From an uncultured Bacillota bacterium (GTDB lineage Bacteria; Bacillota_I; Bacilli_A; RF39; UBA660): DNA of 64,000 nucleotides. The stretch lies in NCBI GenBank assembly GCA_946625165.1, contig CAMOSR010000001.1:7744-71743 (forward strand), in the 5' to 3' direction. Positions 54,857 through 61,221 of this stretch are shown in pieces. Numbering within the stretch: position 1 is the first letter of the stretch; the number at the start of each line of letters is the position of its first letter. Position numbers and translations under genes: made by a program. The notes beneath the pieces were generated by a model that had not been told where the DNA came from, searched no databases, and was given only the letters and a program-made list of their open reading frames with translations.

Positions 54857-55140
54857 TTTATATCCTCCTTTTCTTAAGTATTCGCTTATATCCTAGAATA
54901 AAAGATGGAGTTCTTTTGTTCCACGAAATAAGTACACTACTAATATACACTAGTTTATGCGAAAATGCAAGAAAAATTAAAATTATTCATCAAAATAGTG
55001 TTTTTTGTAAGAAAGACTGTTAAATGCATAATAAATTGACTTTGGAACGTTTTCTAGAAATAAAATCTTATTACTATTGCACTTGTAATTAAATCAATTA
55101 CTTTATTATAGACGTAATCACTACTCTGTTCGTCAACCGT

Positions 55141-56583
55141 TTAATCCTTAGTTTCTTTCGCCATATCTTCTATTACATTTTCTTGATTATTGAAGTTCGA
55201 TTTCTCATTTTCTATTTTTTTATTAGTAATTTGTCTTTTTTCTTTATTTTCGTTTTCGAGCTTAGTAATTTTAGCATCGATATTTTTTATTAAATTGTTA
55301 ATATTTGTTTGATTATCATTATCTTTGATTTTATCAGCTAAGCCTGGCATCATAGAATTTACTAAATTTTCCATTTTTTCTATACGTTTAGTATCTACAT
55401 ACCCTTTTAAGTCAAATACTTTAATATGGTGTGCTTTAACAATTGGATATTGTATATTAGATTTATCAATTATCACTTCTTCAATATCATTATTAAATTT
55501 CGTAATTTCCCCAAAGCTTTCTAGCTCTATTTCATCTTTTTTTATTTTTATAACATCACTAATGGCATGAGTTGTTATCATATATTTACTTTCAAAATTT
55601 TCAACCGAACAAGTACCAATATAATATCTAGTATTAGAATAATTATTCAATTTTAAATAGTTATTAATATATAAAATGTTTTCAATATCATCTATATTAT
55701 CGAGTATAATATGACATTTATTTGTAGGTCTAGTTTCTATTAAATATTGCATAATTTGGTTGAAGAACATTTCTGAAATTACATTAATGTTTTTACTTTC
55801 TGGCTTTCCTATAACGAATATTGCCATCTTTTTCTCAGTTAAATCATGAAAGCTAAAGGTTGACTTACTAAGCAAACTGCTTACTTGTTCATTTCCAACT
55901 AATTTTGAAAGTGGTTTTTCGGCAACAGATAGGATACTTGCTCTAGTGTCTACTGGTGCGATTATAGTAGGTGAAACATTATTATATGAAGAAGAAGTTT
56001 TATCCTTTGCTTTAAAATATTCATCTAAATATTTTTTGTTCACACCTGTTTTTTCTTCTCCTACTGTAATAAACGTATTTACACTATTTAAATTTATTTC
56101 ATCATCTTTTCCATCTTCGAATAGCGCTAAACTAAGCCCAACAAATAAATTAGAAGAAGTATTGGTCCAAAATGGATCCGTGTGTTCATTATCTGGGTAA
56201 AGTATGTGTCCTAAATTATCTAATAATTCTTCAGCTTTATCTTTCATACCACTTTTAAAATAATAGTAAGGATTTTCTAATGGATTCCATCCATCAGAAT
56301 AGTTTAAATTTCTTAAATTAATAATATTAACTTGATATCCTTTTTTTATTAACTTATCATAATATTCGTTTAAATATTCGACTTTTGTATCATAAACTAT
56401 AACATTTTCATTATTATCCATTATTTTATTAAATAATGGAAATAATACACCTGTAGTTTTTCCAGAAAGCATGTCACCAGAAACTACAACATTTTTTTTC
56501 GGATTAATTTTTTCTAATAATTCTTTCACAATGTTTCCCCTACTTTCTATAATAATTATATCATAATACATTATGTGTTTCAA
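55141..56583 (-). CDS. VirD4/TraG/TraD-type coupling-protein homolog (PF02534-like NTPase domain). Soluble, with a degenerate Walker B.
   Basis: VVVSGDMLSGKTTGVLFPLF...NVIVYDTKVEYLNEYYDKLIKKGYQVNIINL..YSDGWNPLE aligns to the T4CP core. Walker B reads HIILDNIDD (D-N rather than D-E). No transmembrane helix. Confidence 0.5.
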   Translation of the reverse strand: MKHIMYYDIIIIESRGNIVKELLEKINPKKNVVVSGDMLSGKTTGVLFPLFNKIMDNNENVIVYDTKVEYLNEYYDKLIKKGYQVNIINLRNLNYSDGWNPLENPYYYFKSGMKDKAEELLDNLGHILYPDNEHTDPFWTNTSSNLFVGLSLALFEDGKDDEINLNSVNTFITVGEEKTGVNKKYLDEYFKAKDKTSSSYNNVSPTIIAPVDTRASILSVAEKPLSKLVGNEQVSSLLSKSTFSFHDLTEKKMAIFVIGKPESKNINVISEMFFNQIMQYLIETRPTNKCHIILDNIDDIENILYINNYLKLNNYSNTRYYIGTCSVENFESKYMITTHAISDVIKIKKDEIELESFGEITKFNNDIEEVIIDKSNIQYPIVKAHHIKVFDLKGYVDTKRIEKMENLVNSMMPGLADKIKDNDNQTNINNLIKNIDAKITKLENENKEKRQITNKKIENEKSNFNNQENVIEDMAKETKD

Positions 56584-56660
56584 GCAATGATATTTGGACT
56601 TTATATATTAAATTATTGTGTTTTTTATATCAATTCTTTAAATAGTTTTTAGTTGTGATT

Positions 56661-57497
56661 TTAAAGCATAATTTTGATTTTCATTATATCATTGTCTTTT
56701 TTATATATAGCAAGTTCATTATCTTCTTCATCTATGAAAAGTACTTCTTCCGGGTATTTTCCCTTTAATTTAGCGCCATTTATTATTTTCTTTTTGAGTT
56801 CTTCATCTACTTTAATATTAGGAATGTCCAATATGTCCTTTATCTTAAGGATTCGGTAGTTTCCTTTTTCGATATCTTCTAAAGTATATGAATCATCTAT
56901 TTTAAATGTGCCTTGTCTAGTTCTTGTCAGACTACTCATTGTCCCAATTGTATTCATATTTTGAAGTAAGTCTCTAATTAAGCTTCTTATATATGTTCCT
57001 TTACTAACTAAGGTTTTAATGGTAAAACTATTTTCATTATAATCTAGGAGACATAAAGATTTAATGGTTACTTCTTTTCTAGGAAGTTTTATCTCAATAT
57101 TTTCTCTAGCGTATTCATAAAGTTTTTTACCATCAACTTTAACGGCTGAGTATTTTGGTACTTCTTGCTTATACTTTTTGGGAAAAGTTTTAATGGCGTG
57201 TTTTAAATCACTTATATTTAATGTTTCTTTTTTTTCTTCTAAAACATTTCCGGTTATATCCAAAGTATCAGTTTTTATACCTATGGTTACTTTTGCAATA
57301 TATTCTTTTTCTTTAGCTGTAAGCATTTCATTTAATTTAGTATATTTACCTATACATATAACTAGCACGCCTTCAGCTAAGGGATCTAAGGTTCCATTAT
57401 GCCCAACTTTTTTTATGTTTAATATTTTGCTTATTTTATTAACTACATCTCTACTGGTTAATCCTTTAGGTTTATTTACGATTATTATTCCATTCAT
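56661..57497 (-). CDS. truB: tRNA pseudouridine(55) synthase TruB
   Basis: GHNGTLDPLAEGVL catalytic motif. Confidence 0.85.
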   Translation of the reverse strand: MNGIIIVNKPKGLTSRDVVNKISKILNIKKVGHNGTLDPLAEGVLVICIGKYTKLNEMLTAKEKEYIAKVTIGIKTDTLDITGNVLEEKKETLNISDLKHAIKTFPKKYKQEVPKYSAVKVDGKKLYEYARENIEIKLPRKEVTIKSLCLLDYNENSFTIKTLVSKGTYIRSLIRDLLQNMNTIGTMSSLTRTRQGTFKIDDSYTLEDIEKGNYRILKIKDILDIPNIKVDEELKKKIINGAKLKGKYPEEVLFIDEEDNELAIYKKDNDIMKIKIML

Positions 57498-59682: not shown

Positions 59683-61221
59683 TTACTTCTTTTTGCTAAA
59701 GACTGATTTTACAATTGCATTAGCTATTCTTCTAATAAATCCTGTGGTCGTGTTTTGGATGACTCTTTGGCCCATTTTTTTAGCTTGACCACCAAAGCTG
59801 TTTTCAGCCTCTTTTTGTTTTTGCCTAGCTATTCTTGCTGCTTCTTTTTCTTCTTCCTTTTTCTTTTTTGCTTCTTCTTTAGCTAGTTTTTCTTCTTCTT
59901 TCTTTTTATCTTCTGCTTCTTCTAATGCCTTTTTTTCTTCTAATTTTTTGGAAAGTATTTCATAAGCTGTTTCATTATCAATTGGTTCATCATATTTGCC
60001 AGCAAATTCACTATTATTAATTACTTTAGTTCTTGTCATTTCGTCAATTGTTCCCATAGCGCTTTGTGGTGGTAATATTACGCCTTTTTCAACTACTTCT
60101 GGTTCGCCTTTTTCATTTTGGAAAGAAATTAAAGCTTCTCCTGTTCCAAGTTCTAAAATAGCTTTTTCTGTATCGAATTTTGAATTTACTCTAAAAGCGG
60201 TAGCTGCGGCTTTTACGTTTTTCTGTTCTGCTGGGGTATATGCACGAAGGGTGTGCTGAACTCTATTACCTAGCTGAGCTAAAATAGGATTTGGAATATC
60301 AGTTGGCGTTTGTGAGACAAAGTATAGCCCGATTCCTTTTGATCTTACTAGTCTTACTACTTGGACTATTCTTTTTAATCTATATTCAGGCATACCGTTA
60401 AATAGTAAATGGGCTTCATCAAAGAAGAAGACTATTTTTGGTTTATCTAAGTCACCAACTTCTGGCATGGTTGTAAATAGTTCCGTTAAAAGCCACAATA
60501 AGAATGAAGCATATAAGTCTGGATTTTCAAACAATTTTGTGGCGTGTAATATGTTAATATACCCTTTACCTTCATTATTTGTTTTTATAAAATCATTGAT
60601 ATTTAAATCTGGCTCTCCAAAAAATTTTTCAGCGCCTTCTTTTTCTAAAGAAAGCAAGCTTCTTTGGATAACGCCGACACTTTGGGTTGTAATGTTTCCG
60701 TATTTGGTTATATAATCTTTTCTATTGTCTGCGATATATTGCAACGTTAATCTTAAATCTTTTAAATCAACAAGTTTTAAATTTTCGTCTTCAGCTATTT
60801 TAAAAACAATATCTAAAACACCTTCTTGGGCTTCAGATAAACCTAGCATAATAGATAATATAGATGATCCGACTCTTGAAATTGTGGTTCTTATTGGGTG
60901 CCCTGACTCACCATAAATGTCCCAAAAATGAACTGGAAAGCTTTTATAATCGAATTCTTTTAAGTTAAGTGATTTTAATCTTTCTTCAATTTTTTCAGAA
61001 GTTTTTCCTTCTATGCAACTGCCAGCTAAGTCTCCTTTAACATCAGCCATAAAAACAGGAATGCCGGCGTCTGAAAAGCTTTCAGCCATTACTTTTGAGG
61101 TAACTGTTTTTCCACTACCGCTTGCTCCTGTTATAAGCCCATGTCTATTAGCCTTATTTGGTAAAATAAATAATTCTTTTTCTTTGCTTTTACCTATTAA
61201 TATCTTTTCATTTAAATACAT
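59683..61221 (-). CDS. HerA-like/DUF853 P-loop ATPase with a K/E-rich C-terminal tail
   Basis: Walker A ITGASGSGKTVT; Walker B region VFFFDEAH; low-complexity Lys/Glu tail. Confidence 0.55.
   Translation of the reverse strand: MYLNEKILIGKSKEKELFILPNKANRHGLITGASGSGKTVTSKVMAESFSDAGIPVFMADVKGDLAGSCIEGKTSEKIEERLKSLNLKEFDYKSFPVHFWDIYGESGHPIRTTISRVGSSILSIMLGLSEAQEGVLDIVFKIAEDENLKLVDLKDLRLTLQYIADNRKDYITKYGNITTQSVGVIQRSLLSLEKEGAEKFFGEPDLNINDFIKTNNEGKGYINILHATKLFENPDLYASFLLWLLTELFTTMPEVGDLDKPKIVFFFDEAHLLFNGMPEYRLKRIVQVVRLVRSKGIGLYFVSQTPTDIPNPILAQLGNRVQHTLRAYTPAEQKNVKAAATAFRVNSKFDTEKAILELGTGEALISFQNEKGEPEVVEKGVILPPQSAMGTIDEMTRTKVINNSEFAGKYDEPIDNETAYEILSKKLEEKKALEEAEDKKKEEEKLAKEEAKKKKEEEKEAARIARQKQKEAENSFGGQAKKMGQRVIQNTTTGFIRRIANAIVKSVFSKKK

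Follow-up and report, generated by a model that had tools for sequence, protein, structure and literature searches.

An anchor-less paralogue of VirD4-type coupling proteins with a degenerate Walker B motif, from a conserved clade of uncultured gut Bacilli

The closest described relatives of the gene examined in the present study are the coupling proteins of type IV secretion systems. TrwB of R388 and Cagβ of Helicobacter pylori are natively membrane-anchored and hydrolyse ATP, their Walker B motif being canonical, and TraJ of pIP501, with the membrane protein TraI, is an example of a coupling-protein subfamily lacking transmembrane helices (PMC7434980). In Patescibacteria, a chromosomal type IV secretion system of the monoderm type is described as vertically inherited and usually relaxase-less, with extra coupling-protein homologues encoded far from virB4 (PMC12102498). 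CD1115-family VirD4-like proteins (NF045973; PF02534 plus PF12696) are known from Bacillus and Enterococcus conjugative plasmids and from chromosomal clusters of uncultured Bacilli. Here we analyse a 64,000-nt (64-kb) stretch of contig CAMOSR010000001.1 (assembly GCA_946625165.1), hereafter the window, in which an open reading frame (ORF) at 55141..56583 on the reverse strand, with a listed product of 480 aa, lies between truB and rpsO. Its product is referred to below as the short paralog, and residue numbers follow the 480-aa ORF throughout unless stated otherwise.

Sequence and modelled fold together identify the window gene as a VirD4/CD1115-type coupling-protein paralogue, predicted to be cytoplasmic, in which the catalytic residues and the membrane anchor have been lost. 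Pfam family PF02534 (T4SS-DNA_transf) matched with 87.5 bits (E 1.2e-24; cut-off 20.1), residues 32-289 aligning with positions 47-298 of the 468-position profile, and PF10412 (TrwB_AAD_bind) scored 26.5 bits against a cut-off of 20.5. The top NCBIfam model was the CD1115-family equivalog NF045973 (E 1.2e-36), which covered profile positions 3-283 of 442 and, at 126.6 bits, fell short of the cut-off of 250. PF12696 (TraG-D_C) gave no match at E ≤ 1 in the Pfam scan of the short paralog and is likewise absent from the precomputed Pfam domains of other short forms; the alignment shows a deletion of ~50 TraG-D_C residues following a conserved KYG, relative to full-length (long) forms. The window protein shares its fold, Walker A region and all-alpha domain with the CD1115 family, and with the long forms of that family in Bacilli also ~50% identity in the all-alpha domain and the tail motifs YP..FDLK.YV and LIKxIDxKIxELE. 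Unlike the family, it has no transmembrane helices, its Walker B motif reads D-N instead of D-E, other residues stand in place of the sensor Gln and of a conserved Arg, and linkage to VirB4 or a relaxase is absent from the window.

An AlphaFold2 model built from 85 homologues was confident across residues 20-420, with a predicted local distance difference test score (pLDDT) of 89.2 and a predicted template modelling score (pTM) of 0.83. When compared with solved structures using Foldseek, the model matched Cagβ (8dol, E 2.5e-13) and TrwB (1e9r, E 1e-10) best, with template modelling scores of about 0.5-0.6, and DndH and HerA ranked below them. TrwB and Cagβ share with the window protein a nucleotide-binding domain carrying an inserted all-alpha domain, although sequence identity is only 10-18%; PF10412, the model and the fold matches all place this insertion between Walker A and Walker B, as coupling-protein architecture requires. 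The maximum 19-residue hydropathy of the short paralog is 0.48, compared with 2.4-3.4 in full-length relatives, giving no hydrophobic N-terminus, and Walker A begins at residue 18 when the protein is counted from its probable 462-aa start. The initial annotation, made from the sequence of the window, had described a soluble VirD4/TraG-type homologue with an intact Walker A, a Walker B (IILD295-N296) lacking the catalytic Glu, and no conjugation genes nearby, and had proposed profile searches and comparison with TrwB/VirD4; the results above bear this description out, and neither an unrelated P-loop family nor a contiguous conjugative element was found.

Other affiliations were considered and rejected. 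Five Pfam families matched at E ≤ 1, and besides the two coupling-protein families the sole P-loop family among them was DEAD (E 0.005, below cut-off), so that neither AAA+ nor KAP was represented. A sequence search of solved structures returned only ferritins at E 1e-3; these were spurious, and a fold search was needed instead. Scans with PADLOC and PHROG gave no family match for the window protein or two other short forms, and a defence-system or phage origin was therefore dropped.

The short paralog belongs to a large clade. Relatives of the window protein, 92 from a database search and 266 from the genome scan described below, split cleanly into a long and a short group. Long forms comprise 640-850 aa, with a hydrophobic N-terminus, Walker A GSTGAGKT and Walker B ILDEF (each present in 71/71) as well as a TraG-D_C domain. 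Short forms, all anchor-less and with ILDN, comprise 340-630 aa, begin ~18 residues before Walker A, contain no hydrophobic segment and lack the ~50 residues after KYG; they form one monophyletic group in a neighbour-joining tree built from the core region, on branches longer than those of the long forms. We use the term short clade for these anchor-less Walker B D-N coupling-protein paralogs, a group defined in the present analysis and not a curated family, on the basis of a missing anchor, GxxxxGK[TS] within approximately the first 25 residues, hhhDN, the post-KYG deletion and placement in the tree, all of which apply to the window protein. A scan of species-representative genomes with a 14-sequence alignment produced 266 matches, mostly in metagenome-assembled genomes of uncultured gut Bacilli, and the best 80 of these supply the genome-scan loci designated by L numbers. 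When 1.84 billion cluster representatives were searched exhaustively with a hidden Markov model (HMM), 1,120 proteins matched at E ≤ 1e-30; 82 of the best 150 were anchor-less with D-N in a motif screen, and the short clade includes at least 116 D-N sequences among the HMM matches to 50%-identity representatives, again mostly from uncultured gut Bacilli.

The clade is chromosomal. No short-type member was present among 72,556 plasmid records, in which no match covered ≥80% of the query and coupling-protein members matched residues 3-260 at 28-30% identity. Viral contigs yielded two distant partial matches only, and a metagenome scan with the window protein returned solely a contig identical to the window. 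One locus (L017, 5001-7750) encodes two anchor-less paralogs in tandem, the first (460 aa) having a Walker B of FILDDF and a TraG-D_C match and the second (434 aa) a typical D-N; the first may represent an intermediate state.

Catalytic positions were compared between 137 short and 84 long forms within an alignment of 234 sequences. Walker A Lys42 is retained in 97% of short and 96% of long forms, T43 in 95% of short forms, and Walker B Asp295 in 100% of both. At position 296 the long forms invariably have Glu (100%), whereas the short forms have Asn in 84% and Glu never; the sensor position 325 is Gln in 94% of long forms but Arg in 67% of short forms (Cys in the window protein), and the first conserved Arg (314), found in 94% of long forms, has given way to I/L/N in short forms. 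Since the D-N Walker B is conserved clade-wide, it is the hallmark of an old, conserved clade rather than a private mutation of the window copy. A kept P-loop combined with lost hydrolysis residues is what would be expected of a protein that binds nucleotide without turnover, and we infer from these motifs that the window protein and its clade probably bind nucleotide but do not hydrolyse it. Precedent exists in coupling proteins, in which nucleotide or substrate binding survives loss of ATPase activity (PMC7434980).

Conservation is distributed unevenly along the protein. Identity was calculated by region for the window protein against 71 long forms, the L011/L014 long subgroup and ten other short forms. 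In the all-alpha domain (residues 101-250) the respective values are 49, 50 and 44%, and in the tail (376-450) 34, 52 and 30%, compared with 31, 34 and 48% in the N-terminal half of the ATPase domain (30-100) and 17, 19 and 30% in its C-terminal half (251-365). Local alignment raises tail identity to 55-58% with the long forms L011, L014, L016 and L057, versus 39-40% in the core, approximately the same as the tail identity to a short sister that is 61% identical overall. With the all-alpha domain and tail the regions closest to the full-length coupling proteins and the catalytic half the most distant, the recognition modules have been kept and the motor has not. In coupling proteins the all-alpha domain is the module recognising the cognate relaxosome and accessory proteins (PMC7434980), and C-terminal tails dock partners (PMC7434980, PMC12857230). 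The tail had initially been described as an Asn/Lys/Glu-rich coiled coil; the helical prediction stands, but the region bears motifs common to long forms, is not mere low-complexity coiled coil, and ends at a stop codon that is premature relative to sister species. When the tails of short and long forms from one genome were compared, two of the four testable pairs matched (rank 6 of 71), a result that is no more than suggestive of concerted evolution.

The long forms have a consistent genomic setting. They end a strongly syntenic chromosomal cluster that comprises TrbL_4 (VirB6-like), two small proteins, a 594-aa VirB4-like ATPase, a C39/NlpC-type hydrolase, a glucosaminidase/CHAP hydrolase, small lipoprotein-like proteins and then the coupling protein, always with rhodanese, rmuC, rnr and smpB genes directly 3' (L027 1-16589; also L014, L020, L060, L061, L072 and about 30 more). 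No relaxase was seen within 10 kb of the cluster. The short forms follow a different pattern: in ten loci (L006, L007, L008, L010, L012, L013, L018, L027, L037 and L103) the 5' neighbour of the short form is a MerR-family gene (130-160 aa) that adjoins or runs into its start, and the two genes make up a compact module that recurs in many different chromosomal settings (for example L006 9613-11314, L010 9607-11323, L027 19554-21043 and L103 9605-11020). In L018, L027 and L037 the pair lies ~8 kb downstream of a long form on the same contig, and these are the only loci with a short form linked to the secretion cluster within 10 kb. In three further cases (L002/L020, L010/L071 and L019/L078) short and long forms are on different contigs of one assembly, bringing co-residence to at least six genomes. 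The description of the window gene as an orphan therefore holds locally but not for its clade, which is large, usually MerR-paired and co-resident with a full-length coupling protein in these genomes. A split coupling protein, with the anchor supplied by the upstream gene, was ruled out, as that gene encodes a MerR-type regulator or another cytoplasmic protein. Several loci of Bacilli type (L009, L012, L016, L019, L020, L031, L060 and others) come from records titled Muribaculaceae, Methanobacteriaceae, Ignavibacteriales or Actinomycetes, which are probably wrong bin-level taxonomy labels.

In four loci the short form is followed 3' by a radical SAM/SPASM enzyme, a 41-aa ORF and a protein of ~470-505 aa of unknown function (F39). 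The radical SAM/SPASM–F39 neighbourhood is seen at L106 6313-9038, L107 4710-7435, L010 12795-15329, L019 1301-4481 and L007 11646-14233, the 41-aa ORF lying between the two genes in L106 and L107, and looks like a peptide-maturation cluster. An ADP-ribosylglycohydrolase gene neighbours the short form in two loci, between radical SAM/SPASM and F39 in L010 and 3' of the paralog in L017.

The Bacilli cluster resembles the Patescibacteria system in its small-genome uncultured hosts, its apparently relaxase-less chromosomal layout and its scattered coupling-protein homologues, and differs in phylum; the available part of that report describes neither a subclade without transmembrane helices and with a degenerate Walker B nor MerR pairing (PMC12102498). 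Soluble coupling proteins (PMC7434980) and extra coupling-protein homologues in small genomes (PMC12102498) are already known. We found no description of a conserved anchor-less, Walker B-degenerate clade, or of its pairing with MerR-type genes, in the literature on type IV secretion in RF39, an order-level taxon of gut Bacilli without cultured members, on CD1115, or on orphan or degenerate VirD4.

The features of the window copy are compiled in Table 1. The listed TTG start at 56583 falls in the -35 hexamer of the gene's own promoter, which matches the consensus at 11 of 12 positions, and the homologues begin with MKELLEK exactly at the position of GTG 56529. Because the ribosome-binding site, the promoter position and the homologue N-termini all point there, GTG 56529 is almost certainly the true start, predicting a protein of 462 aa, which is also the length given by gene callers on conspecific contigs. 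The block of -35, -10 and ribosome-binding site is kept 5' of the 76%- and 61%-identical homologues (L090 and L002).

Table 1 Features of the short coupling-protein paralog and its surroundings in the window
Feature	Position	Strand	Basis
Short coupling-protein paralog, coding sequence (462 aa, GTG start, TAA stop at 55141-55143)	55141..56529	-	ORF listing, ribosome-binding site, promoter, homologue N-termini, Pfam/NCBIfam, fold
Sigma-70-type promoter, TTGAAA-17 nt-TATAAT, extended TG	56555..56583	-	Consensus scan
Ribosome-binding site AGGGGA, 6 nt 5' of the GTG	56536..56541	-	Sequence reading; kept in L090 and L002
Walker A GDMLSGKT (G36-T43), intact: G36-DMLS-G41-K42-T43	56455..56478	-	Alignments
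All-alpha domain, residues about 101-250, with DPFW and LALFEDGK-DEINLNS	55834..56283	-	PF10412; helical block H103-H250 of the model; 49-50% identity to long forms
Degenerate Walker B IILDN (D295-N296)	55696..55710	-	Catalytic Glu at this site in full-length relatives; alignment of 137 short and 84 long forms
Conserved C-terminal tail, residues 376-450: YP..FDLKGYV, LVNSMMPGL, LIKNIDAKI..LE	55234..55458	-	Tail listing; local alignment to L011/L014/L016/L057 long-form tails
Decayed remnant of the C-terminal extension	55031..55140	-	tblastn of P0002 and P0005 against the window; DNA comparison
Species-specific insert, bounded by the stop codon of truB and the conserved leader of rpsO	54983..56661	-	blastn against L095, L097, L099

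Comparison with sister species indicates how the window copy reached its present position. The window PNPase is 84-94% identical to the PNPases of many metagenome-assembled Bacilli bacteria, on contigs of up to 1.36 Mb, and the gene order in these species is rhomboid, HerA_C, cysS, truB, a gap, rpsO, pnp, ftsK, a STAS-domain gene, sigF and spoVA. Homology to the sister species stops at 56662 on the truB side and resumes at 54972-54982 on the rpsO side. In L095 and L096 (PNPase 92% identical) the gap holds a PDDEXK_2/HTH_Rpn_C (Rpn-like) gene (L095 5497-6690), in L099 and L100 (PNPase 84% identical) an HTH_3 gene (L099 5201-6685), and in none of these species ribF. The truB-rpsO gap is shown by these comparisons to be a variable cargo slot, and the short paralog to be accessory, species-specific cargo lying outside the truB-rpsO-pnp and sporulation gene sets. 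Four genes upstream of the short paralog, a P-loop ATPase of 512 aa (HerA_C/DUF853, E 1e-193) is encoded at 59683-61221(-), and in the sisters it keeps its synteny with the rhomboid gene and cysS. It is a second member of the FtsK/HerA superfamily nearby, unrelated to the present finding. An IS605 OrfB/Cas12f-like TnpB gene near rpsO-pnp in a sister species (L099 14629-15777) is a further sign of mobile-element traffic in the neighbourhood.

The closest non-conspecific homologues, P0002 (76% identity) and P0005 (61%), comprise 623-627 aa and are encoded directly after a ClpP-like gene in the arrangement AAA, ClpP-like, homologue and 517-aa protein. At L002 8462-13771 and L090 1-2392 these genes specify a 309-aa AAA/AAA_lid_6 ATPase, a 179-aa ClpP-like protease, the homologue and a 517-aa protein without family match, and the arrangement may preserve the original operon of the subclade to which the window gene belongs. 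A further homologue, P0006 (60% identity), lies after an AraC-type gene; upstream neighbours in this subclade are ClpP-like or AraC-type instead of MerR-family genes. The 80 nt 5' of the window gene align with L090 and L002 over a span that starts in the final bases of the ClpP-like gene and takes in the -35, -10 and ribosome-binding site, from which it follows that the gene came with its own promoter. A search of the 64-kb window by tblastn with the VirB4-like, TrbL-like, hydrolase, MerR, AAA and ClpP-like proteins of relatives returned nothing besides the short paralog. These data show the window copy to be a fragment of ~1.7 kb, comprising the last bases of the ClpP-like gene, the promoter and the gene, that moved from an AAA/ClpP-like locus into the truB-rpsO gap.

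The 3' end of the gene was not preserved. Read-through of the TAA stop gives DEQSSDYVYNKVIDLI, which aligns to the 627-aa P0002, and a frameshifted NSNKILFLENVPKSIY at 55078-55031 matches P0002 residues 504-519, where homology ends; the remnant as a whole corresponds to P0002 residues 481-519. The C-terminal extension, ~150 residues that in the sisters contain a YDDFF motif like that at the extreme C-terminus of long forms, has been lost through a stop codon, a frameshift and a deletion.

Nevertheless, the remaining frame appears to be maintained. The ratio of non-synonymous to synonymous substitution rates (dN/dS) of the window gene, averaged over both lineages, is 0.25 against L090, 0.32 against L002 and 0.22 against L086, indicating purifying but relaxed selection. 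The 462-codon ORF is intact and of the same length in all conspecific contigs from independent samples (L001, L087-L089 and L092-L094), which differ by at most six synonymous and two non-synonymous changes in total. These counts lean against a dead relic and are too few for a firm test.

We tentatively propose that the short protein is an ATP-binding, non-hydrolysing adaptor, decoy or regulator that recognises the partners of the long coupling protein and serves the type IV secretion cluster of its lineage, which is the likeliest of the readings considered, though somewhat less likely than not. According to this proposal, the protein would bind nucleotide without turnover, its all-alpha domain and tail would recognise the same partners or substrates as a true coupling protein, and, being soluble, it would take one of these roles towards the chromosomal VirB4/VirB6/hydrolase/coupling-protein apparatus of uncultured gut Bacilli, in most relatives jointly with the adjacent MerR-family DNA-binding protein. 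Several observations weigh against the proposal. The long coupling protein of the window species itself was not identified among the protein matches, whose tails reached 51% identity at best; around most long-form loci, no short form lies within 10 kb; and tail matching failed in two of the four same-genome pairs (L018 and the truncated L078). The window copy has neither the usual neighbours nor the C-terminal extension and may no longer do what intact members do, its dN/dS of 0.25-0.32 is relaxed in comparison with core genes, and nucleotide binding is assumed only from the retention of motifs. A more specific version, that short paralogs are nucleotide-locked soluble receptors which, with a MerR-type partner, gate or program a vertically inherited, apparently relaxase-less chromosomal type IV secretion system, is rather improbable. 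Such receptors would choose the cargo (DNA uptake or release, protein delivery) or switch the apparatus on or off, and the window copy would be a trimmed variant whose all-alpha domain and tail still titrate the same partner.

Other explanations differ in how they account for the degenerate state of the window copy and the scattered positions of its relatives. That the gene is a non-functional relic, a translocated fragment on its way to loss that, transcribed or not, has no selected role in this species, is unlikely but deserves some weight: its 3' end is cut, it has left its AAA/ClpP-like context, none of its neighbours in the window is of MerR, AraC, AAA or ClpP type, it sits in a gap filled differently in sister species, and its dN/dS exceeds that of typical core genes. 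Weighing against relic status are the intact frame of equal length and the few differences among conspecific copies, the retained near-consensus promoter and ribosome-binding site, the presence of all clade-defining residues and a model that is confident over most of the protein. A stand-alone nucleotide-dependent switch that is merely descended from coupling proteins and unrelated to secretion, acting, for example, as a DNA- or protein-binding partner of a MerR-type regulator or as a component of the neighbouring radical-SAM/SPASM peptide cluster, is a rather improbable alternative. It would fit the occurrence of the MerR module in many unrelated contexts, usually far from the secretion cluster, the recurrent radical SAM/SPASM, 41-aa ORF and F39 genes or ADP-ribosylglycohydrolase nearby, and the faster evolution of short forms; yet the all-alpha domain and tail are closer to long forms than is the rest of the protein and in this subclade follow one long-form subgroup, a pattern not easily accounted for unless a partner is shared or exchange continues, the two forms co-reside in at least six genomes, and the downstream neighbours may just reflect gene order inherited among related species.

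An active coupling protein without transmembrane helices, recruited to the membrane by a small partner and powering transfer, is very unlikely, given that the catalytic Glu is replaced in 137/137 short forms along with the sensor Gln and conserved Arg, ~50 TraG-D_C residues are deleted, the upstream partner is a cytoplasmic MerR-type protein rather than a membrane protein, and no secretion genes were found in the window. TraJ of pIP501, the model for such a protein, keeps canonical ATPase motifs. It is, like the window protein, a soluble coupling-protein homologue, but is encoded inside a conjugative transfer operon, whereas members of the short clade are chromosomal, catalytically degenerate, usually MerR-paired and without a membrane partner. 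In favour of a TraJ-like role, a subfamily of coupling proteins without transmembrane domains is recognised (PMC7434980), and the window protein has an intact Walker A and enough of the fold to be modelled with confidence. Least probable of all, and in our estimate hardly credible, is the suggestion in the initial annotation of a domesticated DNA- or substrate-recruiting ATPase with a sporulation role that replaces ribF between truB and rpsO. Its only basis was proximity to ftsK and sigF: ftsK/spoIIIE is 2.9 kb away, and the STAS-domain gene, sigF and spoVA genes are close by. The position is limited to one species, the gap is filled by other cargo in sisters whose flanking sporulation genes are identical, the closest homologues (76 and 61% identical) are located elsewhere in an AAA/ClpP-like context, the promoter is of sigma-70 type and was imported with the gene from the donor locus, and the catalytic site is dead. 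The comparative data contradict the sporulation reading, and the gene came to lie near ftsK and sigF by an accidental insertion confined to this species.

For practical purposes, annotation of the window gene should begin at GTG 56529 and carry a 3'-truncated flag. Coupling proteins are usually regarded as ATP-driven gatekeepers of conjugation and effector secretion, and a large, conserved clade that keeps the recognition modules without catalysis or anchoring would be a natural "substrate-trap" version of such a gatekeeper. If the short clade does regulate or feed the chromosomal secretion cluster, it would provide a handle on the function of that apparatus in abundant uncultured gut Bacilli.

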